36,051 nucleotides of DNA from a virus (IMGVR_UViG_2579778871_000005), one strand, 5' to 3'; counted from the first letter of the stretch, positions 1,379-33,208 are shown. Notes: a model not told the origin generated them from the letters alone. Numbers and translations: made by a program.

Positions 1379-1394
1379 ACTGATGGCCATCAGT
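1379..1394. promoter_or_regulatory. Perfect 16-bp palindrome ACTGATGGCCATCAGT upstream of com (candidate regulator binding site)
   Basis: Read directly from the sequence in the 145-bp gap between the stop at 1479 and the com start at 1333; a second inverted repeat CCAGAGTC..GACTCTGG lies at 1439-1466. Confidence 0.3.
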
Positions 1395-1478
1395 GGCAGC
1401 CTTGGGCGGCTCGCAGGCGCATCCTGCGGGTTAGCTGGCCAGAGTCTGGTTGCAGCCTGACTCTGGTCGCTGTTTTCC

Positions 1479-1931: not shown

Positions 1932-2554
1932 GGTTGCCACCCCGTGGAGTAGTCATACGCCTGAACTGCCTGGATATCTTCCAGCGCCTCAACGGCGGCA
2001 ATATGCCGCTGGGCATTGGCAAAGAGGCGCATATCGTGATCCATTGTAACGGACTCAAACTGCGCCGCGATTTCATTGGTCAGCTCAAGAAGTCCGAGGT
2101 TTTTGGTCTGCCACATTAAGCCTTTGGGGATTTGCTTTGCCTGTCCCATTTTAGTCAGTGACATCTGCTGGATACGGCTACTGGCATCGCTGTGGAAGTG
2201 GTAGTCACCAATCACAATATAATCGGCAGTGACTTCGTCTCGTTGTGCTTTTATCGCTTGTTTAACTTGCGATTTAGCGTTATTAAGCTCGAGGGCAAAT
2301 CTGGCTACGTCATATACCCATACCTTTCCGTCTAACCGGTAAAAATCCCCTGGGGGTAATGTGGTGGTAAACGTTCTGTCTTCAACATTAACCCAGACAT
2401 ATTCCCCTTGATTGAAATGTTCAAGCCATTGTTGCTCAGTTAATTCAATCAGACTTGTTCTCTCTGGATAACAGAATAACTCGGTATCCATCCAATCCAG
2501 AACACGTAAGGATGCAGGATCGTAGTAAGCATATTTTGACATTATCTTCACCAA
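1928..2554 (-). CDS. Tail fiber assembly protein (Tfa)
   Basis: 208-aa ORF immediately downstream of the tail fiber gene with overlapping start/stop; size, position and C-terminal ..YDYSTGW.. are typical of Tfa chaperones. Confidence 0.6.
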   Translation of the reverse strand: MVKIMSKYAYYDPASLRVLDWMDTELFCYPERTSLIELTEQQWLEHFNQGEYVWVNVEDRTFTTTLPPGDFYRLDGKVWVYDVARFALELNNAKSQVKQAIKAQRDEVTADYIVIGDYHFHSDASSRIQQMSLTKMGQAKQIPKGLMWQTKNLGLLELTNEIAAQFESVTMDHDMRLFANAQRHIAAVEALEDIQAVQAYDYSTGWQP

Positions 2555-4164
2555 TAAATTCTGACGATACCAGAAGAACCATTCGATCCATTATTAAGAA
2601 CCCAGTCACCTAGATACCCCCGGTTACTGGCACTGGAGCTACCACCTGCACCACCTGCACCGAAGCCATTTGCATTAGATGGTAATGAACCAGCTATTAT
2701 CTCTGAACGTTCTAATGTGACATTCCCAGGGATTCCACCTTTACCTAAGATAGAATCACTCCCTCTTAGCCCTAGAGTTACATACTCTTCCTTACGCCCG
2801 CCTCCATTCCCATCAGAGGGGAGAAATCTTATTACATTTCCTCCTGTACACCCTGCTACACCTCCATCACCACCTGGTACATTCAGATATGCAAAAGAGG
2901 ATTGTCCTCCAGCGTTCCCGTTATAACCTATACCTTGTGAGCCGCTGCCTTTCGCACCTCCGCTACCGCCTACACCAACCATTACAGGTATCTGACTTTT
3001 TGGTGCAACATCAACATAACCAGCAATACATCCGGCAGCGATTCCCCCTGTGGAACAAACATTATTTGCTGATGAACCTCCGGCTCCGCCACCACCACCA
3101 CCAACAACCTCAACAAAGATCTGCGTCACCCCATCCGGTACAGTAAAAGTCCCATTAGCCGTAAAAAACTGATAATGGGAGTGGTTGGCTGGAGCTGCCG
3201 CACTTGCCTTGTCATACGCCGCCTTAACTGCGCTCGGCGTCGCCGCTTCCGTCGTGCTGTTACTATTCGTAGAGCTATTAAGCTTCACAACTCCTTTCTG
3301 TGCCGTCGTGGCATCCGGAACGTCGGTAATTTGATTCCAGGGGTGCGAATGATTTCCCGCCGCCTTACCATTCGCCAGGTCATACGCCGCCTTAACAGCA
3401 CTCGGTGTCGCTGCCTCTGTCGTATTGGTACTGTTCGTCGCACTATTAAGCTTCACAACCCCTTTCTGCGCCGTAGTGCCATCCGGCACCCCGGTAATAT
3501 CGCCCCACGGATGTTTATGCGCTTTATCAGCCCCAGCTTTTTCCAGTGCCTCATTCGCCTTATCCATCGCCGCCTTCACCGCCTTCGGCGTTGCTGCCTG
3601 CGTTTCCAGCGTGCTATTGGTTGAGCTGTTAAGCTGCGTAAAGCCTTTCTGCGTCAGCGTCGCGTCCGGGTGATTATGCGATCTTTCGTGCTCTTCAATA
3701 CTGGAGTCCACATAATCTACCGTTGCCATCACCAGTGATGGATCAACCATCAATGTCACAGCCGCCGCGTTCGTCACCTCCATCACCGCACGGATCACAA
3801 TCTGCTTACTGGCCCCGGCAGGCAGCTTCGGCTTATAGGTTTCCGGGAACTTGCCAATGGCGATCAGTACGCCGTCCTTATCCAGCAATCCCACCTCGCG
3901 GATATACCAGCCGCCGACTGATTCCGGCAGTACCGCCTCGGCAATCACCCACGCCGGGTTTTCCGGGGCGATTTTCAGAGTATTCAGTGGCCCGCGCCAG
4001 ACTTCACGCACCACCTTTGTCTGGCTCTCTTTCGGTTCGGCATACTGCCCACCGCCGTCGCCAACGACCATTGTTTGCAGCACTATCTGCTTTTGTTCCG
4101 CCAACGCCGCCGCGATTTTCGCGCGGCCAGCGGCGGTTAAAATGGTAAAAAATTCACTCGCCAT
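2548..4164 (-). CDS. Tail fiber protein
   Basis: 538-aa ORF; N-terminus MASEFFTILTAAGRAKIAAA... resembles the conserved N-terminal domain of Mu S / P2 H-type fibers; three in-frame tandem repeats (..AQKGVVKLNSSTNS..TTEAATPSAVKAAYD..HSHPW..ITDVPD..) and a Gly-rich C-terminal domain. Confidence 0.8.
   Translation of the reverse strand: MASEFFTILTAAGRAKIAAALAEQKQIVLQTMVVGDGGGQYAEPKESQTKVVREVWRGPLNTLKIAPENPAWVIAEAVLPESVGGWYIREVGLLDKDGVLIAIGKFPETYKPKLPAGASKQIVIRAVMEVTNAAAVTLMVDPSLVMATVDYVDSSIEEHERSHNHPDATLTQKGFTQLNSSTNSTLETQAATPKAVKAAMDKANEALEKAGADKAHKHPWGDITGVPDGTTAQKGVVKLNSATNSTNTTEAATPSAVKAAYDLANGKAAGNHSHPWNQITDVPDATTAQKGVVKLNSSTNSNSTTEAATPSAVKAAYDKASAAAPANHSHYQFFTANGTFTVPDGVTQIFVEVVGGGGGGAGGSSANNVCSTGGIAAGCIAGYVDVAPKSQIPVMVGVGGSGGAKGSGSQGIGYNGNAGGQSSFAYLNVPGGDGGVAGCTGGNVIRFLPSDGNGGGRKEEYVTLGLRGSDSILGKGGIPGNVTLERSEIIAGSLPSNANGFGAGGAGGSSSASNRGYLGDWVLNNGSNGSSGIVRIYW
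3169..3663. repeat. Three tandem ~140-bp in-frame repeats inside the tail fiber gene
   Basis: Near-identical DNA blocks (for example gccgccttaac.gc.ctcgg.gtcgc.gc.tc.gtcgt...ctattaagcttcacaac.cctttctg.gccgt) recur at about 3230-3330 and 3375-3480, mirrored by the protein repeats. Confidence 0.7.
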
Positions 4165-4883
4165 TACTCCTCCGGGTAAACAGTGACAAACTCAATACTC
4201 CAGCAGCCCGCTCCAACACTCATAACGCTGGTCTGCTCAACATTGCCATGCAGCGGAGGCAACACCGTTACCACCTCTGCACTCAGACACTCCGTCGCCA
4301 GATAAACCGCAGACGACTGACTCACGCTCTCCGCAATCCACGGCAGAACGGTAGCGATCTCGCCGCCCTGAACCGCGCTGGCGATAACGGGGATCTGGCT
4401 CTGGTTAATCAGCCAGATAGTCAGCATCTCCAGCTTTGAGCGGACGTTCTTGTACTCATGGATCAGCACAATCAGCGCGTTAAATTCATCCTCAGTCAGC
4501 CCGCGCGTCTCAAGCGTCACACCCATGCGGAAAAAGTACGGCTTGCCGCCATACTCAAACCACTCGCTGATATCGCCGTCCAGTGCCAGAATCTTCAGTA
4601 CCTGACGCACAGCCCACGGCGTACCGCGATAGCGGTGCAGCTCAATGGCCTGCTTGATCAGATCGCGTTTCTGCCGCTCATTACGGGCGAACAGCCAGCC
4701 TTCCAGCCCCTGAACATGAAACTGTTCTGCCAGCGACGGTAGCGCCGTGGCGTCCACCAGATCCACTAGGTAAATCAGCAGCACAGTCAGATCGAGTTGT
4801 GCGAAGCGTTCGGCGGCAAGATTTGCCAGCCGGGTAAAGCGTTCATCCCCGGCCAGCGGCGGTTGAAGCGGTAACTTATCCAT
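4164..4883 (-). CDS. Tail/baseplate protein, P2 gpI-like
   Basis: 239-aa ORF between the baseplate J-like and tail fiber genes, the gpI position in P2-type tails; overlapping start/stop with neighbours. Confidence 0.65.
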   Translation of the reverse strand: MDKLPLQPPLAGDERFTRLANLAAERFAQLDLTVLLIYLVDLVDATALPSLAEQFHVQGLEGWLFARNERQKRDLIKQAIELHRYRGTPWAVRQVLKILALDGDISEWFEYGGKPYFFRMGVTLETRGLTEDEFNALIVLIHEYKNVRSKLEMLTIWLINQSQIPVIASAVQGGEIATVLPWIAESVSQSSAVYLATECLSAEVVTVLPPLHGNVEQTSVMSVGAGCWSIEFVTVYPEE

Positions 4884-5991
4884 CGCTCACCCCGGCGATG
4901 GTCACATCAATTGCGGTACACTGCGCCCACTCATGCGCCGCCAGCACTCGTTTGGCAGGCGTTTCCAGCGCCACGTCATAAACTCCCGCCACCTGCAACA
5001 CCTTGATGATTTGATTGGGGACGATATCCAGCCCCAGATGGCGCTCGCGTTCTGCCGTCCAGTCGGCGATGGCCCGCCGCGCGGCAAGCAGGGTTGAGTC
5101 CTGATCGGCTTTAGTGAACAGCGTGAGTTGCGCGTTAATCTGATATGCCACGCGGAGTGGTTTCTTCGCGCTCACCTTATCTGTCAGTGGGCGCTTTTTC
5201 TCTTTGCTGACGTCCTGTACCACCTGTGCGAGCAGTTCGTCTCCGGGCAGGCCGTCCTGCGTCAGCGGGTAAATCTCCACGCAACCTTCATCCAGCCCTT
5301 CATCCGGGCCGAGGATGGCCACGTCGATAATCGCCTGACTGACCGACAACGCATGAAAGCGGTACGCGCCATAACTGCCCGCGTTGCTGAAGCACTCCGG
5401 GGCCAGCCGGATACGCTCACGCAGGGCGTCGTCACCCTCATCGGCACATCCACCGCCTGAAGCAGTAATGTTCGTTACCTGCAAATCCACGCCCGCCACG
5501 CTGTCTACCAGTGCGCTAATCTGCGCCGGTTGCCAGTCATTACCAGGCTCACCAGCGGTGGTACAGGTGGCAGTCACATCCACGCTCAGGCTTCCGGCAG
5601 GCAGCAGCACGTCATCATCGGTGGCAAACATCACGCTGTTAGAGGCGCTGGCGCGGGTTCCCTCCGGGATCAACACATTGCGCTTTTGCGCCTTGGCAAC
5701 GGAGAATTGCAATGTGGTCTGCGCCGCTTGTGCGGGCAGGCGCTTCACACCCACCAGTTCGCCGAGATAATCGAGCATTGGCGCACGGGAAAACGCCACA
5801 AGGTTCTGCTTTGCCGCTTCCTGGATGCCGATGCGTACAAGGTTCTCACGGTAGGCAAAGACGTCTATCAGCAGCCGCTCCGCCTGCGCCGGATAGAGCG
5901 TTTTACCGCTGGCCGCTTCATACTGCGCAATCATCTCGCTGGTAATTTGCGCCGGGTCGCGGTCGATAAAATCGGGTTCATCTAACGCCAT
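4876..5991 (-). CDS. Baseplate protein, P2 gpJ-like
   Basis: 371-aa ORF downstream of the W-like gene; size and synteny (V-W-J-I-H) match a P2-type baseplate; assignment by synteny and general similarity. Confidence 0.7.
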   Translation of the reverse strand: MALDEPDFIDRDPAQITSEMIAQYEAASGKTLYPAQAERLLIDVFAYRENLVRIGIQEAAKQNLVAFSRAPMLDYLGELVGVKRLPAQAAQTTLQFSVAKAQKRNVLIPEGTRASASNSVMFATDDDVLLPAGSLSVDVTATCTTAGEPGNDWQPAQISALVDSVAGVDLQVTNITASGGGCADEGDDALRERIRLAPECFSNAGSYGAYRFHALSVSQAIIDVAILGPDEGLDEGCVEIYPLTQDGLPGDELLAQVVQDVSKEKKRPLTDKVSAKKPLRVAYQINAQLTLFTKADQDSTLLAARRAIADWTAERERHLGLDIVPNQIIKVLQVAGVYDVALETPAKRVLAAHEWAQCTAIDVTIAGVSDG

Positions 5992-6341
5992 ACCACCTCC
6001 GTTTCATTAATGACGCCATCAGCGGCACGCCACTGGATGCGCAGCGTGAGATGTTCGCCGTCCAGTTCCGGCACCACTTTCAGAAATTTGCAGCGCGGCT
6101 CCCATTGACGAATAGCCTCCACCGACTCACGCACCACATGCGGAATCGCCCGTTCAGCAGGCCAGTCGATATAGCGCCACAGGTCGCTGCCGAAAAAGGG
6201 ACGATGGGGATCGCTGCCGCGCGGTGTGCGCAGAATGATGTGAACGGCCTGGCTGATATCATCCAGCCCGCAGACGTATTCGCCGTCGCGTTTCAGGGCC
6301 GGTTGCCAGTGCAGATTTAAAGGATGGGATTGTGTGCTCAT
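5982..6341 (-). CDS. Baseplate wedge protein, P2 gpW / T4 gp25-like
   Basis: 119-aa ORF (MSTQSHPLNLHWQPALKRDGEYVCGLDDISQAVHIILRTPRGSDP...) of the size and position of gpW-family proteins. Confidence 0.65.
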   Translation of the reverse strand: MSTQSHPLNLHWQPALKRDGEYVCGLDDISQAVHIILRTPRGSDPHRPFFGSDLWRYIDWPAERAIPHVVRESVEAIRQWEPRCKFLKVVPELDGEHLTLRIQWRAADGVINETEVVWR

Positions 6342-6386
6342 GGGGGCATTGTCGCCCCCGGTGCTACAGCGCGGTATTAAACCGCT

Positions 6387-6878
6387 TTAATGAGAGTGAT
6401 GGTTGGTATTGCCGCCTGCGTCGATGATAGTGCCTGACGCATTGATATTGCCGTTAACCTGAATATTGCTATTAATCGTGGTCAGCGGTGCGGTAATAGT
6501 GATACTGGTTTTCACCTCAATCACGATTTTTTCAATGCCGCCATTAACGGTAAGTTGGTGCTGTTTGCGATCATACTCAATCGCGGCCTCATCGGAGAAC
6601 CTCACATAGCGCTTGTCTTTGTCAGTCACCGGCGGCGTATCGACCGACGAATAGACAGCCCCCAGCACCACGCCATCCTCGCCGTTATCATCCAGCAGAA
6701 CCTCCACCTGCTCGCCAATATCCGGGAGCCAGTAGTCCTTATTGTCCTGTGTATTGCGTTGCAGGATGGGGAGCCAGTTGGTACGCAGATCGTCGCATTC
6801 CGGCAGGGTGACGCGCACACACACCTTCACTTCGTCGATATCGCTGATAATACCGGTCTGTCGGGTTACGCCTTTCAT
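6387..6878 (-). CDS. Baseplate spike/assembly protein, P2 gpV-like
   Basis: 163-aa ORF upstream of the W-like gene with a beta-rich, repeat-like C-terminus (..ITITAPLTTINSNIQVNGNINASGTIID..) typical of spike proteins. Confidence 0.6.
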   Translation of the reverse strand: MKGVTRQTGIISDIDEVKVCVRVTLPECDDLRTNWLPILQRNTQDNKDYWLPDIGEQVEVLLDDNGEDGVVLGAVYSSVDTPPVTDKDKRYVRFSDEAAIEYDRKQHQLTVNGGIEKIVIEVKTSITITAPLTTINSNIQVNGNINASGTIIDAGGNTNHHSH

Positions 6879-7993
6879 TGTGTCTCCTGCGTTGTTGTAC
6901 CGTCAGGGTGATAAACGGTCAGGGTGTCGGGCTTTTTATTCTTACGTTTGCCGGAGCCAGAGCTGCTGCCCGCCGCCGTTTTCGGGCCGCGTCCAATCTC
7001 GATCTCCGTACTGTACCCTGATGAACGGTCGAACGAATGGCGGGCGCTGGTGATAAGCCACTCCCCGGAGAGCACTCCGAACCCGTCAAGATTGATTTTG
7101 TTCCCGGCGATAAGCTGCGTGTTACCCATCATGGAGAGCGAACCGGTCTGCTGATACTCGTTATGATCATCCAGCGCCGCCTCGGCTTTCACCTGTGCCG
7201 TCCCCTGATCCGCCGCCCGCGCATTGACCTTGAGCGTATCGGCGCTGGTTGATTTACCGCGTGGGGCGGTACTGCTACTGCCATCGGCGTTATAGGTGAT
7301 CAGTTCCTTATCCTTACTCTTCTGATGCGCCACCTTTGCATCCTTATAGATGCGGTTGATGGTATCGCGCAGCGACCATCGCGCCACATCCTGCGGCGTC
7401 AGCGTCGTCACCGGCGCATTGCTGCGCAGCGTGGCCAGATGGGAAAACACCAGCTCATCAGTGGTGACTTTCAGCGCGTAGCCATACTCACCCGCCAGTC
7501 GCTTCAGAAAGCCGACGTCTGTCTCCGCGTATTGCGTCACCCGATCAATAGTAATTGGCTCTATCTGGCCAACCAGCTTCAGGCCGTGCTTCTGTGCGAT
7601 ACGGCTGGCAATCGCATCCAGCGTCGTTTCTTCGTAGCCCTCGCTGGACGCGGTGCGCAGGGCGCTATTGACCGACGTCGCCACGCCGCGAATGGATACC
7701 GTATCCGGCGGTGCGCCCAGCTCAATCTCATCGATGGAGAACGATCCACAGTCCAGCAACGCTTCGCCCTGATAACCTAACTTCAGCATCAGCATATCGC
7801 CTTTGCCCGGATACCAGGCATCCCGCCAGCGCCCGGCAGTGTCTTCCACCTGCACGTCGATTTCATCCGACTCGCTCTTGAGACTGTCGGTATACGTCAC
7901 GCTCAGGACAAAAGGCGCAATATCGTGGGTGATATCTTTCTGCCCGTAAAACAGGGTGAAAACGGGGGTGATAACGGCATTTACCTGAGCCAC
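6875..7993 (-). CDS. Tail protein, P2 gpD-like (baseplate hub / late control D family)
   Basis: 372-aa ORF following the X-like and U-like genes after the tape measure, the P2 T-U-D order. Confidence 0.65.
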   Translation of the reverse strand: MAQVNAVITPVFTLFYGQKDITHDIAPFVLSVTYTDSLKSESDEIDVQVEDTAGRWRDAWYPGKGDMLMLKLGYQGEALLDCGSFSIDEIELGAPPDTVSIRGVATSVNSALRTASSEGYEETTLDAIASRIAQKHGLKLVGQIEPITIDRVTQYAETDVGFLKRLAGEYGYALKVTTDELVFSHLATLRSNAPVTTLTPQDVARWSLRDTINRIYKDAKVAHQKSKDKELITYNADGSSSTAPRGKSTSADTLKVNARAADQGTAQVKAEAALDDHNEYQQTGSLSMMGNTQLIAGNKINLDGFGVLSGEWLITSARHSFDRSSGYSTEIEIGRGPKTAAGSSSGSGKRKNKKPDTLTVYHPDGTTTQETQ

Positions 7994-8199
7994 GGTGGCA
8001 CCTCATCAACATCATGCACCTGCATCGGCCCAATCACCGGGATACGCAGCCGCAGCCCGGAGGCCAGCGTGGGCGTGATCGCAATATGCGGATTAGCGAT
8101 AATGATGCGCTCATAGCCCATCGGATCGCCATAATAGCGGAACGCCAGATTATCCCAGCGTTCACCCTCGGTGGTGATATGTTCAATCCAGCCGCCCAT
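7981..8199 (-). CDS. Tail protein X-like (small LysM-like tail protein)
   Basis: 72-aa ORF (MGGWIEHITTEGERWDNLAFRYYGDPMGYERIIIANP...) of the size and motif pattern of P2 gpX-family proteins. Confidence 0.55.
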   Translation of the reverse strand: MGGWIEHITTEGERWDNLAFRYYGDPMGYERIIIANPHIAITPTLASGLRLRIPVIGPMQVHDVDEVPPWLR

Positions 8200-9182
8200 T
8201 ACACGCTCCTTGTAATGATTGCTGCCGCCAGCCTGCTAACGGCAGGGGAGCACTCTTCCATCAGCGACTGGCCGTTGCGCACAACGTCCAGTGCCTGCGA
8301 AAAAACAGTGGTGAAATTGTCCAGACTGATATCCTCAAACCCGGTCAGGGTGCCGCTGATTTCGTCATAAATCTGCGAGGCGTATTGCCCGACGTCGCCA
8401 AGAACATCTGCAAGTACGCTGCCGTCTGTGATGTCCGTCAGCGTTTGCAGCACATCGTCCAGGGGGGACAATACATCGTCGAGAATATCTTCCAGCGGAG
8501 AGACCACCTCGTCCAGCATCTCCTCCAGCGGTCCCAGTACATCATCAACAAGATCCCCGACTTGTTCCATTGCTTCTCCAATGGCGTCCTCGACCTGTCC
8601 CGCCATATCTTCTGCCCACGACACCGCCTCATCGAACGCCTGCGCAGCGGCATCCAGCGCATCCGATACCTCACCCAGCCCGTCAGTAATATCGCCCAGG
8701 TCTTCGAACATATCGCTGCCAGAAAAACTGTCATCAGCATCGTCAGACCATGAGTCAATATTCGGATCATCCCCGGACACCGCAGGTGGCGTCAGGGGAT
8801 TTTTCGGATCGCCGATGTACTCCTTCAGCGACAGCTCCGCACTTAACGCCTGCACATTGCCGAGGCCATCGGTCTGCTGGCTGGTTGCCCGGATATCGGT
8901 GATCACAAACCAGCCGCGATAGTCACCGTTGCCGAACACCAGCGCCAGCGCCTGATGTGCCACCATCGCGTCACGCAGCCGCGCCAGTTCAACATCCGGC
9001 TGGCAATAGTGTTCGTGGAACACCAGGCTGATACTCACTTCATCCAGCTTTTCGCCGATAAACTGCAACCCCGGCTTACCTTCGATACGTGAGTGCTCGG
9101 CATAATCCATGCCAAACGACGCATCAAAACCGTCCCAGTAGGTCACCACCTCAAACTCAATATCACCCAGTACGGCAAACAT
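8199..9182 (-). CDS. Tail protein, P2 gpU-like N-terminal domain with acidic repeat-rich C-terminus
   Basis: 327-aa ORF immediately downstream of the tape measure gene; C-terminal half made of degenerate acidic repeats (DxxxDVLSPLEDxLDxV). Confidence 0.5.
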   Translation of the reverse strand: MFAVLGDIEFEVVTYWDGFDASFGMDYAEHSRIEGKPGLQFIGEKLDEVSISLVFHEHYCQPDVELARLRDAMVAHQALALVFGNGDYRGWFVITDIRATSQQTDGLGNVQALSAELSLKEYIGDPKNPLTPPAVSGDDPNIDSWSDDADDSFSGSDMFEDLGDITDGLGEVSDALDAAAQAFDEAVSWAEDMAGQVEDAIGEAMEQVGDLVDDVLGPLEEMLDEVVSPLEDILDDVLSPLDDVLQTLTDITDGSVLADVLGDVGQYASQIYDEISGTLTGFEDISLDNFTTVFSQALDVVRNGQSLMEECSPAVSRLAAAIITRSV

Positions 9183-11944
9183 TACGCATACTCCCGGCGT
9201 TCACGACGCGCCATAATCCGCTCCATCATCTTCTCCAGTTCGTGCAGGCTCAGTTTCAGCGCAGAAGTGATTTCGCCTTCGGTAGCCGATGCCGCGCCCT
9301 TGATAGTAATTTGCGGCGCAAAGGTCACATTCACCCCGGATGACTGCCCCGGTACATGCACACTGGCATTGCGCCCTTTGGCGGCAGGAGCATTACTTTT
9401 TGGTAGTTCAGGAACGGCAGGCGCGGCGGCTTTCGGTGGCACTGGCGGAAGCGGTTTGGGGCGGGATAACACTGCGCCCGCTGCTCCGGCCAGCGCCATA
9501 CCCGCCGCAGAGGGCGCAGGCGGTGCGGCTTTCGACAGCAGTGGATTGAACTGGGGAGCGATGACGCCCGTCACTGGCGCAATCTTTGGTATCGGAGCAA
9601 CATCCAGCCCCGGTACGCTGATATCCGGCAGTGGAGGAATTAACGCCGCCGCCATTTGCTGACTGGCGGAAATCGCATCCGGGGCGGTGCGGTTGATACC
9701 AATAGCGGCCCCTTGCGCGATATTATCGCCGAACCCGGCAAAGACCTGGCTGGGGGAGTGAATACCCAGCGTCTCTTTAAACCAGCCGGAAATGGAGTTA
9801 CCAAAATTGACGACCGTCTCTTTCGCGGCGGTCAGCGCATTGCCGATACCGTTCACCAGACCGTTAATCAGATTGCCGCCAAAATCGGTAAAGTTCTTCG
9901 GCATATCGATACCGAAGTATTTCATCACCCCGGCAAAGGCTTTACAGAACAACCCCAGCGGCGACCAGTTCATAATTAATCTGCCGACGCCCGCGATACC
10001 GCCAGAAAACGCGGTCTTAATCTGTGCCCAGATACCGGAGAACCAGCCTGTCACGCCGCTCCAGATACCTTTGATGCCGCTCCATGCCCCGCGAAACGCT
10101 ACCGTGACCTGCGCCCACAGCCGTTTAAAGAAAGCGGATATTGGCCCCCAGTAGCGATAAATCAGATACGCGGCCACGGCGATGCCGGTGATGATTAACC
10201 CGATGGGATTCATCAGCAGCGCACGGCCAAGAAACAATACCGCCCGTCCGGCCATCATCAGACCACGCAGCAGCCCACTGCCCAGAATTTTTGCCAGCTT
10301 TAAAGCGCTACGTCCCAGTGAAGTTAGCATCCGCGTTACCACATGGAATCTGCCCCCTGTCGAAAATGCGACTTTAAGGAACAACCAGCGGGTCCTTAGT
10401 AGTTCAACGGCTTTGATACAGTCAGCAAAGGGAGAAAGCATTAAGTTCAGCGCCAGTTTGCAGCCCACCGTTGCCGCTTTAAAGGCAATAAATCCAGCGA
10501 GTAGTTTGGCAACCGTCGCGACCATCTCCGGGTTTGCCGCGAGCCATTTACTGAACGAATCCAATACGGGTAACAGACTTTCCGATAATTCAACCAGTGC
10601 CGGGCGAAGCGAACTACCTATGCTGATTGCAATTTCATTCATCGCAACTTGAGATTTTCGCCACCGGGCTTCCAGCGTGTTATTTTGTTTACCAAAGTCG
10701 GTATCCAACGCATTTTGCGATCCAGGATCACTCATCTGGGCCTTATTAGACTGATATTTATCCCAGTTCTGCCGCATCGAAAGTAGATGATTGACGGTCT
10801 GAATATCGGTAAACACCTCTGACAGACCGAACGACTCCATCAATTTTTGCTGTGCTTCGCCGTCACCGCTTGCGCCAGCTTCCTGCCACTGCTTAATAAA
10901 TGCATCACCTTTTCCCTTAATAAAGCGATCCGCAATCATCAAGGAAGCTTCATATTGTGAATAACCTTTGGCGACGTAATCCTGCATTGACGCCTCATAG
11001 TCTACGCCCGCTTTTTCATATTTCTTAACGGTGTCACCGCGCGTCATTGCAGCCATCCAGTTAGTCATATTGGTCACAGCTTCTTCTGCTGAACCTGAAC
11101 CTTTTGCTGCCTCAAGAGATGCAACGATCTCCTTAATTGCCTCCGGCCCGGTAATGCCTTTGGCGGCAAAGCTTTTCGCCAGGGTGGGGAGAGCTTTAGC
11201 CATATCCTTTAATTCAAAGGAACCGGTCTTTGCACCGACGGCTGCCATTGCAAAGGCTTCTTCCATCTCCTTACCATCACCAATCTTCAGCGCATCGCTG
11301 AATGCATATGTCATCTTCGCCAGATCGGTCATATCGGCTTTGGTGGCGGTGGCCGTTTTACCGAGTAATTCCACCATGCCAGCTGCTTTTTCAGGATTCA
11401 TACCGTCTGCAACCAGTTGATTCACACCGCCGAGCAGTGTTTCCTGCAGTTGGTTTACCTGGCCCGCGGCCTGACGGATGGCATTACCAATAGCCACTTC
11501 CTGTTTATCATTAAGGTTGCCTGTGACGGCGATATCCCGTAAGCCGGACTCAAATCCTGCGTAGGTCTTAACAGACGATACGAACGGAGCCGACATTGTT
11601 CTTGCAAGGGCATAGGTTTCTGCCCCCTGGGCATACAGATTCATCCGCTGATTGCGTAAGGCCTGACTACGCGCGGCAGATGCTGACAATCTTGCCTGTT
11701 GATTCTGTAACTGCTGGAGAGTGCGTGAAACACGCTGTAAATCAGCGTTCAACCTGTTCGCTACGCTCCCCCCCAAATGACCGTAACGGGCAAGAGCGTC
11801 GTTCAGGGCGTTCTGTTGAGTGCGTAACCGCTGTGTTGATCTGCCTAAATCGGTTAACGCGCTGCGCGTTCCCCCCATTGCAGAACGAAACGCCCCGCTA
11901 ATTGCACCACCAATCAGAACACTAATTGAAAGATCTGCGGCCAC
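9182..11944 (-). CDS. Tail tape measure protein
   Basis: 920-aa ORF, Ala/Gly-rich with coiled-coil-like N-terminus and internal hydrophobic segments, between the tail tube/chaperone and baseplate genes. Confidence 0.85.
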   Translation of the reverse strand: MAADLSISVLIGGAISGAFRSAMGGTRSALTDLGRSTQRLRTQQNALNDALARYGHLGGSVANRLNADLQRVSRTLQQLQNQQARLSASAARSQALRNQRMNLYAQGAETYALARTMSAPFVSSVKTYAGFESGLRDIAVTGNLNDKQEVAIGNAIRQAAGQVNQLQETLLGGVNQLVADGMNPEKAAGMVELLGKTATATKADMTDLAKMTYAFSDALKIGDGKEMEEAFAMAAVGAKTGSFELKDMAKALPTLAKSFAAKGITGPEAIKEIVASLEAAKGSGSAEEAVTNMTNWMAAMTRGDTVKKYEKAGVDYEASMQDYVAKGYSQYEASLMIADRFIKGKGDAFIKQWQEAGASGDGEAQQKLMESFGLSEVFTDIQTVNHLLSMRQNWDKYQSNKAQMSDPGSQNALDTDFGKQNNTLEARWRKSQVAMNEIAISIGSSLRPALVELSESLLPVLDSFSKWLAANPEMVATVAKLLAGFIAFKAATVGCKLALNLMLSPFADCIKAVELLRTRWLFLKVAFSTGGRFHVVTRMLTSLGRSALKLAKILGSGLLRGLMMAGRAVLFLGRALLMNPIGLIITGIAVAAYLIYRYWGPISAFFKRLWAQVTVAFRGAWSGIKGIWSGVTGWFSGIWAQIKTAFSGGIAGVGRLIMNWSPLGLFCKAFAGVMKYFGIDMPKNFTDFGGNLINGLVNGIGNALTAAKETVVNFGNSISGWFKETLGIHSPSQVFAGFGDNIAQGAAIGINRTAPDAISASQQMAAALIPPLPDISVPGLDVAPIPKIAPVTGVIAPQFNPLLSKAAPPAPSAAGMALAGAAGAVLSRPKPLPPVPPKAAAPAVPELPKSNAPAAKGRNASVHVPGQSSGVNVTFAPQITIKGAASATEGEITSALKLSLHELEKMMERIMARRERREYA

Positions 11945-11982
11945 GTTTTACACTCCCGAAAACCACACGAAAAAGAGGCGTT

Positions 11983-12261
11983 ATGAACAACGCATTAGCT
12001 TTGTTTAAAGGACTATTGATCGCTGCGATTGTGGTGGTAGATGGCTGGGCGCTATTTCAGGTGGTCAGCTACACCTTACAGAATTGCCATAATGGACTGG
12101 CGATTGTGTTAATGATTGGTGTGGGCAGCATTGGCGTCCTGTTACTGACAGCCCTGATGGCCTGGGTAATACAGCCCGCCGTTTATTTACTGACTTTCCT
12201 GTTTGCCATTATCGGCGGTATTACCGAATGGGTACTCAACCGCCGCCGCTCTCACGCTTAA
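11983..12261 (+). CDS. Small membrane protein (about 3 TM helices), transcribed antisense to the tail operon
   Basis: ORF 11926..12261 plus; likely ATG at 11983 preceded by AAGAGG (11973-11978); product MNNALALFKGLLIAAIVVVDGWALFQ... is strongly hydrophobic; fills the gap between the chaperone and tape measure genes where no minus-strand ORF of 60 aa or more exists. Confidence 0.45.
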   Translation: MNNALALFKGLLIAAIVVVDGWALFQVVSYTLQNCHNGLAIVLMIGVGSIGVLLLTALMAWVIQPAVYLLTFLFAIIGGITEWVLNRRRSHA

Positions 12262-25195: not shown

Positions 25196-26404
25196 TTAAG
25201 GAGTGGGCTTATTGCTCAAGTGATGCCACCATGACATCACTTTTGTAACCAAGGTATTCCATGTTTCAGGGTATGTGCAGTATAGGTAAATTAATCCTGT
25301 CGATATAATAGCGACAACAAGGAACATAATGATAAACCAGAACGCAATAACCTGACGGCAAAGACGTTTACGTACAGAGCAAAAGATACTATCAATGTCA
25401 TTTTTTATTGATGCATACTTTTTATCAACCTGAGTCTTTTTATGTCGAAGTTCTTCTTTGATAGCGGTTAACGTCTGTAACTGGTTGAACAAAGTCAACA
25501 TAACCAACGTAGCAAAAACAAAGGCCCCTAAAAAAACTGCGCTATTGATAATGGTTTGATAGACATCACCACTTGCTTTCTTGATTTGTGTCGCGACGAT
25601 AATGGTTGCGACTGGGATACCCAGTATCTGGTTTTGGATATCTGAAAAGACTTTGTGGATACGTCCCATTTCTTCAACTTTGGCGGTTCTAAGTTCATCC
25701 AGAACCTTTTCGTATGAGAACCCAGAAGTGAAGAGGCGATAACCCTTATCGAACTCAACTTTTAATTTTTCAATGTTCTTCAGTGCATACTCAAAGACTT
25801 TATTGTTTTCCGTTTCCTGACCGATTAACTGGATGCTTTCAATTAAAAGGGAGAGTTTCTGCTCTTTGTGTGTGTCGTCAGAAAACTGCTGAATGAGTTC
25901 ATCGAGTGTCGTTTTATCAAGATTTTCTACGGTTTCTGCACTGTAACGTATAGGTAATTTAAATACATCGGCACGGAAAAAAACGCATTCATATGCTCTG
26001 GTATCAAAGTATGCCGACTTTTCTTTAAGCAGGCGCAGAAATGTTAAGATAGTGCGGTAGTTTTCAATTACGGATGTTGGCGCATCCGAACTATAAAATT
26101 GGCTGTCGATCAGGTAGTATCGGGAAGGTTCCTCGCTTTGGTGTTTTGGCGACTTTAACAAAGCCGCCAAATTACGGCATAGCAGACCTAGCTTTGTCTT
26201 TGGGGCGTTCACAAATAGCGACACCTGCTGACCAGGTTCTACTTCGCCTTGTGCCAGAGAGATCCCATATGTATCAGTGTCCTCAAGCAAGGTGTTGAGC
26301 AACTCGCAGGATTCTGGGGTAAGCACCAGCGTACCTTCGGCCATATCGTTACCGAAAGTAATCTGCCTGTACAATCCCACCAGCTGCTCAAAACTGATAC
26401 TCAC
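25196..26404 (-). CDS. Cargo protein of unknown function with ~330-aa soluble N-terminal region and two C-terminal TM helices
   Basis: 402-aa ORF; its start overlaps the stop of the NdpA-like gene (ATGA at 26401-26404); C-terminal hydrophobic helices (..TIINSAVFLGAFVFATLVMLTLF.. and ..VIAFWFIIMFLVVAIISTGLIYLY..); AT-richer than the phage backbone by eye. Confidence 0.75.
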   Translation of the reverse strand: MSISFEQLVGLYRQITFGNDMAEGTLVLTPESCELLNTLLEDTDTYGISLAQGEVEPGQQVSLFVNAPKTKLGLLCRNLAALLKSPKHQSEEPSRYYLIDSQFYSSDAPTSVIENYRTILTFLRLLKEKSAYFDTRAYECVFFRADVFKLPIRYSAETVENLDKTTLDELIQQFSDDTHKEQKLSLLIESIQLIGQETENNKVFEYALKNIEKLKVEFDKGYRLFTSGFSYEKVLDELRTAKVEEMGRIHKVFSDIQNQILGIPVATIIVATQIKKASGDVYQTIINSAVFLGAFVFATLVMLTLFNQLQTLTAIKEELRHKKTQVDKKYASIKNDIDSIFCSVRKRLCRQVIAFWFIIMFLVVAIISTGLIYLYCTYPETWNTLVTKVMSWWHHLSNKPTP

Positions 26405-27432
26405 TCCTCAACCTCATCCAGTATCTCTTCCCTGAAGCTATCAGGAATATTCCTTAGAATGATTACATCCTGATCACGATTATACTCAATTGAACCATCT
26501 ACAAGACCGACACGATCAAACTTTAGTTCCCAATAATTAGACTTTCCTTTAAAGGAAATGATTCCTTTTAGTACGCGTCCATCAGGGACAAAACCATCCG
26601 ACAGTTCCAGTTCTTGGTTGGCTAGTTTAGTCGAGAGTAGTTCTGGTTCTTGTGGCCAGACCGCATTCACAAAGGTTGTCAGATCTACAGGCTCACCATC
26701 TTTGCTCAGTTGCTTCAAATGGTCATGTGCAGTTTGCAGAAAAGCCTCTCGATGTGCGGGGTCAAGCCCTTGCTCAGTCGCAAATTCTTTCAACGCATCC
26801 CGCAATTTCTCCGTTTCACGCTTGGCGATCAAAACATCGTTACAGCCCAGGAATTGCTTAAAGTAACCAGATACAGCATTACTCCCCTTCAGGAAACTTA
26901 TATAACGTTCGGCACCTGATTGCCAGGACGTAATGTCAATACGCCCCGCCACACGTAGCTTGTCGATATCAAGGTAGACACTTTCTTGGATAGCAAAGGC
27001 ATCGTTAACCGCAGTACCCGTCGTGGGACTTAACATGGCAACTAAAATATGCTCGTGTTGATTCATCGTAATGTGGGCGAATAGAACATAGCCACCAGTA
27101 GCGAGTGGTGTTGTTTGAATTCGAGATTCCAAATGACGAATCATACGGCAGGAGCTACGGTAAAAATTATCAGGATGCTCCTGAGCTAAATAGTCTGATA
27201 CAATTGTTTGCATCGGGTAATTATCTGGGTCATCTTCAAAATGGCCATAGCCTTTCCCCATTCGCCCTGCATATTTCCCACAGATATCATCGATTAAGCG
27301 TTGTGATGCTGCGGTGACACCGCTCTCTGTTGGACTTAGCTGTAAGGATGTCACCCCATGCGGTTCTTTATCTAAAAGATGAACAACCACATGATTTACA
27401 ACGATTGCATTTGCAGGTTCATTTGCTGGCAT
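26401..27432 (-). CDS. NdpA/YejK-like nucleoid-associated protein homolog (diverged)
   Basis: ORF 26401..27483 (first codon GTG); likely ATG at 27432. Segment GGYVLFAHITMNQHEHILVAMLSP...RIDITSWQSGAERYISFLKGSNAVSGYFKQFLG aligns with E. coli YejK as I recall it ([24 protein letters not shown]...[37 protein letters not shown]). Confidence 0.65.
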   Translation of the reverse strand: MPANEPANAIVVNHVVVHLLDKEPHGVTSLQLSPTESGVTAASQRLIDDICGKYAGRMGKGYGHFEDDPDNYPMQTIVSDYLAQEHPDNFYRSSCRMIRHLESRIQTTPLATGGYVLFAHITMNQHEHILVAMLSPTTGTAVNDAFAIQESVYLDIDKLRVAGRIDITSWQSGAERYISFLKGSNAVSGYFKQFLGCNDVLIAKRETEKLRDALKEFATEQGLDPAHREAFLQTAHDHLKQLSKDGEPVDLTTFVNAVWPQEPELLSTKLANQELELSDGFVPDGRVLKGIISFKGKSNYWELKFDRVGLVDGSIEYNRDQDVIILRNIPDSFREEILDEVEE

Positions 27433-27509
27433 AGAATCTGAAACCTTCAGTAGAGTTAGATAGTAAATGCATGCTGTCTGCACGCTTTTTGGTTTTGTTT
27501 ACAACATGT

Positions 27510-28031
27510 TTAATCTTGCCTTGGACACATCCAGTAATCCTCATCCGGCTCTGGCGAGTAAACCATCAGGCACCCTTCGCGCGGCGGCTTCTTATCAGAA
27601 GTCATAGGAACTTTTTCTTTATCCAGTTTCACAACCAGATCCCCACCCGGTACATCCGCTTTATCGAAGCAGACAGACTGGCAGGCAGATTTTGAAATCT
27701 TTACTTCGTGGGTATTATTGGAGATGAAAAGGAAGCAGGTATGACCGGAGGCAGTGTAATTACCTGGTATGTCGTTTTTATCTTTTACGTGAAACTCGAC
27801 CGTCGTAACGGGACGTTGGCTATCATCGTAGACCTTGAACGAATCGAAGTTTGTCGCGTACTTATCCAGACCTGGGCACTGTTGACGAATAAACGGCAGT
27901 TCACGTTTTACTACCGGATTATCGGACTCAACCTTAAATGTAGTAGGGACAGGAGATGGTGCGGCATTATCATCACCACACCCAACCATTAGCAGAGCAC
28001 TTACCCCCAGAGGTAAAAGAAAGTGCTTCAT
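27510..28031 (-). CDS. Cys-rich lipoprotein of unknown function (possible exclusion protein)
   Basis: 173-aa ORF with signal peptide and lipobox (MKHFLLPLGVSALLMVGC); AAGGA ribosome-binding site before the ATG at 28031; same strand as and downstream of the repressor. Confidence 0.7.
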   Translation of the reverse strand: MKHFLLPLGVSALLMVGCGDDNAAPSPVPTTFKVESDNPVVKRELPFIRQQCPGLDKYATNFDSFKVYDDSQRPVTTVEFHVKDKNDIPGNYTASGHTCFLFISNNTHEVKISKSACQSVCFDKADVPGGDLVVKLDKEKVPMTSDKKPPREGCLMVYSPEPDEDYWMCPRQD

Positions 28032-28143
28032 AAAACATCCTTATCTAAAGAAACTCCGTCAACTCTGACAGCAGGTCTCTGGTGACAGAGATAACCAACA
28101 GACCTTTTGAGGCTTTAACCAGGTGCGTAATACCACTACGTTA

Positions 28144-28494
28144 CTATCCGGCTTGTTTATCGGGTCGGGCCTGCGTGAGCAATCGGCCCATTTCAAGAAT
28201 CGCCCTCCGTTGTTCGGCGCTCATATCGTCAAAGGCCTCTAACAACCTTTGTTTTTCTGGTGAAAAATTTTCTACCTTTTCTGCAACCATTGATGGATTA
28301 CGTTGCCCAGTAACTACATAGAGAACATCTAATCCAACCTTTGCCCAAGCCTCTAAAACCGCACTATTAGGGAACGAAGCGCCTTTTTCCCAATTGATTT
28401 GGGAGTGCTTACCTGCGCTAGCCAAAGCAGCGAAATCAGTCTGGTTGTAACCCAACCGTTCACGTTCCTTTTTAATGCGTTCACCTTGGTTCAT
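28144..28494 (-). CDS. Prophage repressor, XRE-family helix-turn-helix protein
   Basis: 116-aa ORF with N-terminal HTH-like segment (..IKKERERLGYNQTDFAALASAGKHSQINWEKG..); divergent from the early operon across a repeat-containing intergenic region; no peptidase domain. Confidence 0.7.
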   Translation of the reverse strand: MNQGERIKKERERLGYNQTDFAALASAGKHSQINWEKGASFPNSAVLEAWAKVGLDVLYVVTGQRNPSMVAEKVENFSPEKQRLLEAFDDMSAEQRRAILEMGRLLTQARPDKQAG

Positions 28495-28589
28495 TTTTTT
28501 CTACTTTTACATTGAAAGGTTGAAAATTTTCTACCATAATCTACCACACATAAACCAAACATCATTGCATCAAACAAGGAGCCAGAACC
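28495..28589. promoter_or_regulatory. Divergent repressor/early promoter-operator region
   Basis: Candidate rightward sigma70 promoter: -35 TTGAAA (28512-28517), 17-bp spacer, -10 CATAAT (28535-28540); repeated TTTTCTAC(C) at 28497-28504 and 28527-28535 and TCTACCA at 28540-28546; AAGGA before the ATG at 28590. Confidence 0.45.
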
Positions 28590-28775
28590 ATGACAACCGA
28601 TCAGGTCAAAGCCCTCTTTCGTCAGCGCGGCGTTACCTTTACCCGCTGGGCAGAAGATAACGGTTACACCCGCAATGAGGTGTATCGCGTGCTTAATGGT
28701 CAGTCAAAAGCCAACTACGGAAAGGCGCATGAGATTGCCGTCAAACTTGGCCTTAAGTCCGGCATCGCCGCCTAG
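28590..28775 (+). CDS. Ner/Cro-like small DNA-binding protein (first early gene)
   Basis: 61-aa ORF opening the rightward operon opposite the repressor; HTH-like pattern (..RQRGVTFTRWAEDNGYTRNEVYRVLNG..). Confidence 0.5.
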   Translation: MTTDQVKALFRQRGVTFTRWAEDNGYTRNEVYRVLNGQSKANYGKAHEIAVKLGLKSGIAA

Positions 28776-28836
28776 ATTTTACAGTAAGTGTAACAGCGTT
28801 TCACATACAGAAAAGAGGCAACACAGGATAATCGTT

Positions 28837-29076
28837 ATGAAACCTACCGATTTAACCCCCGGCCAGCGCGTACTGATTACACCAGAGCTTGGCCCGAAAA
28901 CCCCGCTTCACGGTACTTTTCTCCGCCGCGTTCCGCGCCAGTGTGGTCGGGCGGCTTACAGCGTTTTTCGCATTGATGAATTTGTCGAGCAGAACGGGCC
29001 AGACGATAAAGGAGACACCCCGATGTCGGATTCCTGCATTTCCCGTCGGGTACAACCACTGGAGGTGCGTACATGA
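28837..29076 (+). CDS. Hypothetical early protein
   Basis: ORF 28675..29076; likely ATG at 28837 (MKPTDLTPGQRVLITPELGP...); stop overlaps the next start. Confidence 0.4.
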   Translation: MKPTDLTPGQRVLITPELGPKTPLHGTFLRRVPRQCGRAAYSVFRIDEFVEQNGPDDKGDTPMSDSCISRRVQPLEVRT

Positions 29077-29369
29077 AGGCTTCTACCTCCGGCGCACGCA
29101 TCCTTCGCGTACTCAAAGCCCTGAAAGGCTACTCGCTCACCGGGCTGTCCAATGGCGAACTAGCGGCGGCGTTGCATGAATCCCCGGCCAATATCACTCG
29201 TGCCGCTGACACTCTGATCGAAGAGGGCCTGGTACAACGGCTGGAAAATGGGCGCTTTGCCATGAGCATGGCGATGCTACAAATCGCCCACGCTCATGCG
29301 ACAGAAGTCACCCGCGCTCAGGACAGACTAAAAGAAATGAATCAACGCCTGCTGGCTGGCAGTCGATAA
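29073..29369 (+). CDS. Winged-helix DNA-binding protein, putative early regulator
   Basis: 98-aa ORF (..ILRVLKALKGYSLTGLSNGELAAALHESPANITRAADTLIEEGLVQR..), a pattern typical of winged-helix transcription factors. Confidence 0.45.
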   Translation: MKASTSGARILRVLKALKGYSLTGLSNGELAAALHESPANITRAADTLIEEGLVQRLENGRFAMSMAMLQIAHAHATEVTRAQDRLKEMNQRLLAGSR

Positions 29370-32081: not shown

Positions 32082-33206
32082 ATGCAGATTAAACAACAGT
32101 TGCGCCAGCGTGGCATCACTCAGGCAGCAGTAGCACAGGCTACCGGGGTTTCCGCAGCGGTTATCGCGCAGATGGTTAATCACGGCCTGTGGCCGAAAAC
32201 AGAAGAACTACGGGAGCGCATCAGCGCATTTTTGGCAGAAAAAGGTATTGAACTGAAAGTGGGACAGGCAGCGGCCACTGCCTGCCCCGATACCGCATCC
32301 ACAAGGGACGAAAATATGTTACTGGCAAAACAGGTATTAAATCCAGCGGCGAAGAAACATTTTGGGCTGTTCCGCGACCCGTTCGCTGATGAAGTCATGC
32401 AGAGCGCGGACGATGTATTCACCACGCCGGATATCCGTTATGTGCGCGAGGCGCTGTACCAGACTGCGCGTCACGGCGGGTTTATTGCGGTGACAGGTGA
32501 ATCCGGCGCAGGGAAAACCACGCTGCGCCGTGACCTGGCTGACCGCATCAACCGCGAAAACGCGCCCGTTATCATCATCGAGCCGTATATCATCGCGATG
32601 GAAGACAACGACGCAAAGGGTAAAACCCTGAAAGCTGCCGCCATAGCAGAAGCCATCATCAACACCATCGCGCCGCTGGAGAACGTCAAACGCTCGCAGG
32701 AGGCGCGTTATCGCCAGTTGCACCGGGTGCTAAAGGAATCGGCCCGTGCCGGGTTCTCACATTGCCTTGTTATCGAAGAGGCGCACTCGCTGCCGGTGCC
32801 GACGCTCAAGCACCTGAAACGCTTCTTTGAGCTGGAAGATGGCTTTAAGAAACTGCTGTCGATAGTGCTGATTGGTCAGCCTGAACTGAAGCTGAAACTG
32901 TCCGAACGTAATCAGGAAGTGCGTGAAGTGGTTCAACGTTGCGAGGTTGTCGAACTGCTGCCGCTGGACAACTATCTGGAATCGTTTCTGGCGTTTAAAT
33001 TTCAGCGTGCCGGAAAAGGAGTTTCAGAGGTGCTGGATGATAGCGCCGCCGATGCTATCCGCGCCCGGCTGTGCAATTCATCCCGACGCGGTGACGTCAG
33101 TCTGCTGTACCCGCTGGCGCTGGGGAATCTGGTTATCGCTGCAATGAATCTGGCTGCTGATATCGGCGTACCCGTAGTGAATGCCGATGTGATTAAAGGA
33201 GTGTGA
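32082..33206 (+). CDS. Transposition ATPase (Mu B-like AAA+ protein) with N-terminal HTH
   Basis: 374-aa ORF; Walker A ..VTGESGAGKTTL.. and Walker B-like ..HCLVIEEAHSL..; N-terminal HTH-like segment (..LRQRGITQAAVAQATGVSAAVIAQMVN..). Confidence 0.8.
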   Translation: MQIKQQLRQRGITQAAVAQATGVSAAVIAQMVNHGLWPKTEELRERISAFLAEKGIELKVGQAAATACPDTASTRDENMLLAKQVLNPAAKKHFGLFRDPFADEVMQSADDVFTTPDIRYVREALYQTARHGGFIAVTGESGAGKTTLRRDLADRINRENAPVIIIEPYIIAMEDNDAKGKTLKAAAIAEAIINTIAPLENVKRSQEARYRQLHRVLKESARAGFSHCLVIEEAHSLPVPTLKHLKRFFELEDGFKKLLSIVLIGQPELKLKLSERNQEVREVVQRCEVVELLPLDNYLESFLAFKFQRAGKGVSEVLDDSAADAIRARLCNSSRRGDVSLLYPLALGNLVIAAMNLAADIGVPVVNADVIKGV

Positions 33207-33208
33207 AA

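Follow-up and report, generated by a model that had tools for sequence, protein, structure and literature searches.

The closest described counterparts of the locus analysed here are the lysis-lysogeny regions of the transposable phages B3, BcepMu and Fc02. The repressors of this family include ORF18 of B3, the 'repressor' of Ps59 and Ps60 and gp17 of BcepMu, and a related phage, KS10, is reported to switch spontaneously at high frequency (PMC2628397). In Fc02, which belongs to the B3 family, a temperature-sensitive mutation just after the helix-turn-helix (HTH), G64E, shows that RepC is the immunity repressor (PMC9936078). Transcription of this repressor in the Fc02 lysogen starts at a distal promoter, pC1, and runs antisense through ner; once the repressor is inactivated, pE transcripts start at ner, and pC2, which overlaps pE, becomes active after thermal inactivation (PMC9936078). 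In the literature on the B3/BcepMu phages we found no operator mapping and no induction data.

The region described here belongs to a 36,051-nucleotide stretch of viral DNA (IMGVR_UViG_2579778871_000005; hereafter the window, with all coordinates counted from its first letter), which, going by its sequence, is a Mu-like transposable prophage of E. coli of the BcepMu/B3 type. The window corresponds to IMG/VR contig UViG_2728369607_000010, and E. coli strains A35 and OkiPb01694 each carry a prophage that is 100% identical to it, and in both strains ybjC adjoins its early-gene end. The window encodes a DDE transposase A (rve), an AAA+ B protein, DUF3164, a gp16-family gene and Mor, together with a head module that has DUF935 and Mu F-like genes and a contractile tail of P2 type. 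Among named phages it is closest to Escherichia phage PhiKM (Bcepmuvirus) and to the Pseudomonas beetreviruses (Beetrevirus) B3, Ps59 and Ps60, and the switch is internal in the prophage, not at the left end (as in B3). In the A35 copy, RefSeq lists as pseudogenes the tape-measure gene (internal stop), late control D (frameshift), a tail gene and an ExeA-family B-like gene, which correspond to about 1-12000 and 32288-33208 of the window; because several structural genes are flagged in this way, the prophage may be defective, and the switch may thus sit in a defective prophage. The ExeA-family B-like gene is called a pseudogene in A35, whereas positions 32082-33206 of the window form an intact ORF of 374 aa.

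Between the repressor and the lysis genes, the window carries three cargo genes on the minus strand (25196-28031), which encode a 173-aa lipoprotein-like ORF, a nucleoid-associated protein of the NA37/NdpA type (360 aa) and a protein of 402 aa for which membrane segments are predicted, the gene for the last overlapping the NA37 gene by 4 nt. Relatives have other cargo at the same spot (Dam methylase, YecR, Sel1 or HSDR_N). A defence or exclusion role is possible for these genes; a PADLOC search with the three of them returned no match.

With the B3, BcepMu and Fc02 regions the locus shares a homologous repressor and a first early gene of the gp16 family; with the B3 and BcepMu families, a gap of about 100 bp and an early promoter with a palindrome in its spacer; and with Fc02, an overlap of leftward and rightward promoters, which is predicted here (PMC9936078). 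It differs from all three in the gene that follows ner and in lacking the olg1/olg2/gene 10 arrangement. The Pseudomonas members have a different C-terminal repressor domain, and the intragenic site that we call O3 was found only in the enterobacterial subgroup.

The comparison with Mu c and Ner is similarly mixed. Both phages are transposable, with a repressor gene divergent from a first early gene that lies ahead of transposase A/B and Mor; in both, the second regulator appears to act away from the repressor operators, and the repressor has no autocleavage domain of the RecA type. However, Mu c has a MuA-like winged-helix domain that occupies multiple sites in its own O1-O3 with IHF-assisted bending, whereas the window repressor is predicted to use an Xre/P22 c2-like HTH on 18-bp palindromes, and the small protein of the window belongs to the BcepMu_gp16 family, unlike Mu Ner. 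The P22 c2 and 434 cI systems resemble the locus in their five-helix HTH, in 18-bp palindromes whose AT-rich centres are probably not contacted, and in tandem sites that overlap the lytic promoter. They are unlike it in that the window repressor has no S24 C-terminal domain, in that the tandem sites here are two and not three, and in that the protein in the Cro position here does not share the operators.

The gap between the divergent genes

A first-pass annotation, made from the sequence alone, had described the 95 bp between the repressor and the Ner-like gene as the divergent repressor/early-operon control region of a temperate phage. Its boundaries are as given there, and the reading is supported, for a transposable phage. 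The features of the region are these:

28144-28494, minus strand: repressor gene, 116 aa, ATG at 28494
28259-28276: O3, candidate intragenic auxiliary operator, GGTGAA-AAATTT-TCTACC, 16/18 identical to O1 (GGTGAAAAATTTTCTACC)
28488-28505: O2, predicted weaker operator, GGTTCA-TTTTTT-TCTACT, 13/18 identical to O1 (GGTTCATTTTTTTCTACT)
28495-28589: gap of 95 bp between the divergent repressor and ner-like genes
28512-28540, plus strand: early (lytic) promoter PE, -35 TTGAAA at 28512-28517, 17-bp spacer, -10 CATAAT at 28535-28540
28518-28535: O1, predicted main operator, GGTTGA-AAATTT-TCTACC, 16/18 palindrome (GGTTGAAAATTTTCTACC)
28538-28565, minus strand: candidate proximal repressor promoter, pC2-like, -35 ATGATG at 28565-28560, 16-bp spacer, extended -10 TGGTAGATT at 28546-28538
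28556-28570: conserved leader element CAAACATCATTGCAT, found in all immunity types, containing the -35 of the candidate leftward promoter
28578-28581: Shine-Dalgarno sequence GGAG of the ner-like gene
28590-28775, plus strand: ner-like gene, 61-aa HTH protein of the BcepMu_gp16 family in the Ner/Cro position
28787-28814, minus strand: conserved post-ner element, candidate distal promoter, -35 TTTTCT at 28814-28809, extended -10 TGTTACACT at 28795-28787
28788-28804: post-ner palindrome, GTGTAAC-AGC-GTTTCAC, overlapping the candidate distal promoter

The rightward promoter TTGAAA-17-CATAAT is where it had been placed: PE matches the consensus at 10 of 12 positions, it is the best promoter-like site within 1.2 kb, and its PWM score is the highest in the gap, as it is in every relative examined (10-12 bits). 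Its transcript is predicted to start at about 28546-28548. O1 fills the spacer of PE and overlaps its -10 by 1 bp, and O2, which starts 30 bp from the start of O1, covers the repressor start codon in such a way that its left half is formed by the first repressor codons (ATG AAC C) and its right half by the word copy at 28497-28505.

The repeated words that first drew attention to the gap are also present as claimed and exceed chance. TTTTCTAC occurs four times in the 36-kb window against 0.68 expected, a count that none of 100 shuffles reached, and three of the four copies fall within 270 bp (28268, 28497 and 28527). That these repeats are operator parts holds up, but not the direct-repeat unit TTTTCTAC(C) proposed for them, since the true unit is an 18-bp palindrome of 6-6-6 form, of which TTTTCTACC, picked out by a repeat finder, is the right arm in O1. 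The degenerate pattern of O1 matches twice in the 36 kb (at O1 and O3) against 0.02 expected, and the original interval, although correct for the gap, is therefore incomplete, the third operator copy lying outside it in the repressor gene.

The second word put forward as an operator element, TCTACCA (28540-28546), fared differently. It reads TCTAACA or TCTATCA in relatives with the same operator, and the stretch around it, ATAATCTAnCAC, is common also to phages with unrelated operators; it is therefore not a conserved operator half and more probably belongs to a conserved extended -10 in the leftward direction.

We also note that no member has a Shine-Dalgarno sequence before the repressor ATG (window 28476-28494 and all relatives) and that the upstream sequence is A-rich or AT-rich (AAAAAAATG, ATATTTATG), which suggests that the repressor is translated from a leader that is A/U-rich or very short. 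At the repressor ATG, a promoter of leaderless or PRM-like kind (TAGAAA-17-TAAAAG) was considered and rejected: its -10 has no final T, and O1 would cover its -35 in a geometry that is not activating.

Operator types, the repressor and the intragenic site

About 30 related switch regions were compared (8 enterobacterial contigs, 8 E. coli genomes, IMG/VR and Comamonas loci, Ps60, U11 and B3). All relatives have the same layout of repressor start codon, O2, -35, 18-bp palindrome and -10. In each relative examined, the -35 and -10 of PE enclose a palindrome; the operators fall into at least seven types, and across the ~30 loci the palindrome changes together with the recognition (third) helix of the repressor:

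Type i: helix KHSQIN, operator GGTAGA-N6-TCTACC, in 16/16 loci from E. coli, Klebsiella, Providencia, Pseudomonas and Comamonas
Type ii: helix YKSQLR, operator TATCCCA..TGGGATA, in L022, L024 and L202
Type iii: helix KRT(V/F)ID, operator GTGAG-N6-CTGCAC, in L025, L195, L198, L200 and L047
Type iv: helix SNGGISQ, operator TGCTCA-TAATTA-TGAGCA, in L196
Type v: AlpA-like N-terminus, operator TGTCTA-ATTTTT-TAGACA, in L201
Type vi: helix RKSQIR, operator GTCCCA..TGGGAC, in L051 and L144
Type vii: operator ATGAGAAC-AATA-GTTCTCAT, in L081
B3: helix KRTQIG, operator GGTGCA..GGCACC

It is mainly because helix and DNA co-vary that we call the palindromes operators of the 116-aa protein, and the comparison, from which the sites, their positions and this covariation can be read, supports such an assignment for the 18-bp palindromes. 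The arrangement of the sites is likewise conserved. The 30-bp offset between O1 and O2 and the right half-site of O2 are kept in type-i relatives, type iii has its operator twice as identical or near-identical 16-mers 30 bp apart, and in L022 the O2 half changes along with O1.

Where the immunity type differs from that of the window, identity to the window drops to 53-60% in the HTH-coding part and to 37-69% in the left part of the gap (41 bp; 37-54% for types ii, iv and v), whereas it stays at 63-76% in the C-terminal domain, at 66-86% in the right part of the gap (54 bp) and at 68-81% in ner. Indeed, the C-terminal domain, right gap, ner and post-ner element are as similar in other types as in type-i relatives. 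As only the HTH-coding part and the left gap drop, the specificity cassette extends from O3 as far as O1, and conserved DNA flanks it on both sides, coding for the C-terminal domain at one end and comprising the -10 region, the leader and ner at the other; with O3 in the linker codons of the repressor itself, O3, HTH, O2 and O1 form one contiguous block of ~280 bp. Among 5426 complete E. coli genomes, the type-i cassette is present in only 2, the C-terminal segment in 93 and the ner region in 595. The E. coli carriers of the ner region include many human clinical isolates, O25b:H4-ST131 among them, and at least six different immunity cassettes occur among the few E. coli loci sampled.

Searches by motif added little to this sample. 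Matches to the 14-mer AAACATCATTGCAT in viral contigs were almost all due to chance, relatives being encoded at 4 of 120 loci; a scan of metagenome contigs with a pattern of O1 plus the -10 gave nearly all unrelated matches, many of which adjoin an ORF beginning MFDKIVIANRGEIA, and gained two to three loci, known or redundant. A search of genome contigs with the repressor gave only two Comamonas loci. A further repeat was seen within the Ps60 repressor gene (L001, 2449-2480), where an 11-bp inverted repeat, GGTCAAATGTG-N9/10-CACATTTGACC, is unrelated to the Ps60 operator.

In the repressor itself, a flexible linker (residues 63-78) joins an N-terminal HTH of the Xre/P22 c2 kind (3-62) to a helical hairpin on the C-terminal side (79-107). 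An AF2 model gives the same picture, a five-helix HTH (pLDDT about 95 over residues 1-60), linker and two-helix hairpin, and its N-terminal domain superimposes on that of P22 c2, which binds 18-bp operators, with a TM-score of 0.83 and an rmsd of 1.5 A. Foldseek matches to the N-terminal domains of P22 c2, 434 cI/Cro and SinR (TM 0.7-0.85) are limited to the HTH. By sequence, Pfam finds only HTH_19, at 24 bits and below the 30-bit cut-off, and a PDB search gave only a marginal match, to ImmR. The missing peptidase domain had been recognized already: neither Pfam, the AF2 model nor the fold matches reveal an S24 domain with a Ser-Lys dyad, and self-cleavage mediated by RecA is accordingly not expected as a means of induction, as had been surmised. 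A search of the window for an antirepressor gene found none.

SinR offers a partial parallel, with a similar size (111 aa against 116 aa), the same domain order and a full-length Foldseek alignment (1b0n_A); however, the match is weak (E 4e-3, rmsd 11.6 A), and the window encodes no SinI-like paralogue, tblastn with residues 69-116 against the window finding only the repressor's own gene (next E=1.5). Closer relatives are plentiful, at 218 phage records by tblastn and 348 homologues by protein search. Identity reaches 44% to B3 over 84% of the query and 76% to Ps60/U11 over residues 1-70, and in the window and all relatives collected the gene is divergent from the first gene of the transposase operon, an HTH gene of the gp16 family. 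The residue mutated in Fc02, G64, probably corresponds to the invariant G63 of the window repressor. This homology and the covariation of operator and helix together point to the 116-aa protein as the one that would repress PE and confer immunity.

The C-terminal domain (28144-28258; compared in L018-L025 and L195-L202) is conserved across types as SPEKQxLxDAFDxMxxxQRRxxLExG...QPKPxKxAG, and in L201 it is joined to an unrelated AlpA-like N-terminal domain, which suggests a shared module for oligomerisation or inactivation. One may speculate that this domain, including its tail QPKPxKxAG, has a role in oligomerisation, is recognised by an inactivating factor or protease that the types have in common, or does both; an analogy for the tail is the Mu repressor, which is under ClpXP control.

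The intragenic site O3 lies 259 bp from O1 in repressor codons K73-P79 (KVENFSP), in the linker, where the AF2 model has low confidence. Shuffling of the gene never reached a 16/18 match to O1 in 5000 trials (P<2e-4). O3 is present in 6/6 enterobacterial type-i genes, in five of them at the same codons and 256-262 bp from O1; in the remaining one, L023, it stands at codon 88 (GGTTCATTTTTTTCAACC) and is 17/18 identical to the O2 of L023. A second operator copy at a distance is a feature of looping systems, and other types have own-type copies as well. Type ii has its own half-site plus spacer at the same codons (ATCCCAARAATG; (T/C)ATCCCAA(A/G)AATG, coding I-P-K/R-M, or TGTCCCAAAAATG, coding V-P-K-M, in L202), this being one half-site only. 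Type iv (L196) has TGCTCA-CTGGAA-TGAGCA, with 12/12 half-site bases (P<5e-5), and type iii a weaker candidate, GTGCAG-TTAT-CTGCAC (P about 0.02); shuffle P values for the intragenic sites of types ii and iii range from 0.02 to 0.17. No O3 was found in the distant type-i phages of Pseudomonas and Comamonas or in types v and vi. Distances between O1 and O3 across relatives are 228, 256-262 and 303 bp and are not phase-locked, and helical phasing is uninformative because they vary over this range.

Leftward promoters and the Ner-like protein

On the minus strand, the sequence at TCTACCA reads TGnTAGATT, an extended -10, and a PWM scan found this proximal site to be the same in 7/9 enterobacterial loci, whatever their immunity type. 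The candidate promoter overlaps the -10 of PE and has a predicted start at about 28531, inside O1; it fits the description of Fc02 pC2, as far as a prediction can. Farther right, the candidate distal promoter TTTTCT-16-TGtTACACT belongs to the post-ner element, which is present in 8/9 enterobacterial loci (L023 having a variant) and may be the counterpart of the distal pC1 of Fc02. The score of the leftward candidates is low, about 7.5-7.8 bits, and their -35 hexamers are poor. An overlapping alternative for the distal promoter, GTGAAA-17-TAAAAT (28804-28776), was set aside because its -10 is not conserved in relatives, whereas TTTTCT-16-TGtTACACT is.

The whole stretch after the ner stop (28776-28836) is strongly conserved and reads TAAGTGTAACAGCGTTTCAC(A/T)ATA(C/T)AGAAAAGAGG in all enterobacterial relatives, of whatever immunity type, with the palindrome in the form GTGwAAC-N3-GTTwCAC. 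The post-ner element may serve as a distal promoter of the repressor gene, as a target of the Ner-like protein or in both capacities.

The description of the downstream gene as Ner/Cro-like is right as to position but misleading as to family and behaviour. The 61-aa protein matches TIGR04111 (BcepMu_gp16) at 92 bits against a cut-off of 34 (NCBIfam), and phrog_925 in PHROGs; it gives no match to the Mu Ner family (Pfam HTH_35) and only a weak one to HTH_31, and is thus Ner-like by position only. Furthermore, it does not co-vary with the operators, and phages with entirely different operators have kept the protein, its predicted recognition region SRNEVYRVLNG included. For want of such covariation it cannot act on O1-O3 as lambda Cro would. 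We infer that its target, if it has one, lies in the conserved right half of the gap, where the leader element CAAACATCATTGCAT is a possible site, or in the post-ner palindrome. Explanations of the conserved leader at the RNA level were dropped because a search of 27900-29200 gave no Rfam match and the early leader showed no RNA structure (z=0.58).

A working model and its meaning

The region is, in our view, an ordinary immunity (lysis-lysogeny) switch with modestly new architectural detail. In the model that we propose, a dimer of the 116-aa repressor would bind 18-bp palindromes of 6-6-6 form, with GGTAGA as half-site around an AT-rich centre, and the C-terminal helical hairpin would presumably mediate oligomerisation. 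Repressor on O1 would exclude RNA polymerase, because O1 occupies the spacer of PE, and the lytic cascade, with ner and the transposase genes, would stay silent. O2, over the repressor start codon, would be a weaker site that is filled cooperatively, and O3 would pair with O1/O2 through a loop of about 230-260 bp, tightening repression and also holding down the synthesis of repressor, as a roadblock or through autoregulation. Transcription of the repressor gene would come from a weak proximal promoter, which has its -10 region in common with PE and, since its start is inside O1, would be self-repressed; a distal promoter beyond ner would probably contribute as well. The Ner-like protein would act on the conserved DNA and not on O1-O3. 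The stoichiometry of binding, the loop, the promoter starts and the role of the Ner-like protein are here as we infer them. Taken whole, the explanation of the region as the immunity switch of a BcepMu/B3-type prophage that works in this way appears to us probable, and we hold it with good confidence.

Other readings of the region deserve comparison with this model. The divergent arrangement, with a small HTH protein as first gene opposite the repressor, and the two adjacent operators between the genes recall a bistable switch of the lambda type, in which repressor and small protein would compete, as CI and Cro do, for the same operators with opposite preferences. That the partner is conserved despite entirely different operators, and hence cannot read O1-O3 specifically, makes this very improbable; a Cro co-varying with immunity type is not what was found, with ner at 68-81% and the right gap at 66-86% identity where the operator half has 37-54%. 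There are, moreover, two tandem sites and one distal one in place of three in tandem, and the conserved right gap and post-ner element make better targets for the Ner-like protein. One could go further and see in the repeats chance words of an AT-rich region, and in the 116-aa protein a generic Xre regulator or antitoxin, all of whose Pfam and NCBIfam matches do lie below curated cut-offs. We can give this hardly any credence, as it is contradicted by the shuffle statistics, by the helix-operator covariation over ~30 loci and by homology to, and shared position with, a B3-family repressor that was shown genetically to confer immunity (PMC9936078).

A narrower doubt concerns O3 within the switch model. 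It could be that O1 and O2 are real and O3 without function, a by-product of the conserved linker peptide VENFSP or of chance. The peptide V-E-N-(F/I/L)-S-P is kept in L025, as VENLSP, despite another operator type; the TCACC part of the site is fixed by the conserved Ser-Pro codons, so that the GGTGA of the weaker half is not independent evidence; distant type-i phages do without O3; and the evidence from synonymous sites is thin, with only two usable columns. Yet V-E-N-F-L(-P) is no more than what the consensus operator encodes when translated in frame 2, and its place is a linker predicted to be disordered, where a conserved peptide is not expected. The copy in L023 is at a different codon, in types ii and iv the gene has an operator sequence of its own type, in ii at the O3 codons and in iv close to them, and L025, which combines a window-like type-i C-terminal part with a different operator type, looks recombinant. 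A functionless O3 therefore strikes us as unlikely, though it keeps an appreciable weight, and we lean towards O3 as a selected auxiliary operator of the enterobacterial subgroup, a reading for which the sequence comparison gives us some confidence.

Looping operators within coding sequence are known from lac O2 in lacZ, gal OI in galE, OD of lactococcal TP901-1 and the flanking sites of 186 CI. O3 is like these in being a distal operator copy in a coding region, a few hundred bp from the promoter-proximal one. It is unlike them in that it lies in the repressor's own gene, in linker codons, and in that the loop is a proposed one. Tentatively, and with slightly less than even confidence, we suggest that immunity in enterobacterial BcepMu-like phages could be one self-contained cassette of ~280 bp (O3, HTH coding sequence, O2 and O1) that is swappable as a whole; that O3 could loop to O1/O2, giving tight repression of PE and negative autoregulation; and that a gp16-family antagonist could act on shared, immunity-independent DNA, a logic unlike that of lambda.

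In summary, the comparison yields operator sequences for at least seven immunity types, a table of correspondence between helix and half-site, and the prediction of an operator inside the repressor's own coding sequence. They could help to predict superinfection immunity groups and to build inducible or virulent derivatives, and they offer a collection of orthogonal repressor/operator pairs of small size. The ner region of this prophage has relatives in 595 of the 5426 complete E. coli genomes. No general principle of phage regulation is changed; for this family, the refinements are operators that would be 18-bp palindromes, an arrangement of two tandem sites plus one intragenic site, and a 'Cro-like' partner that would not share the operators of the repressor.
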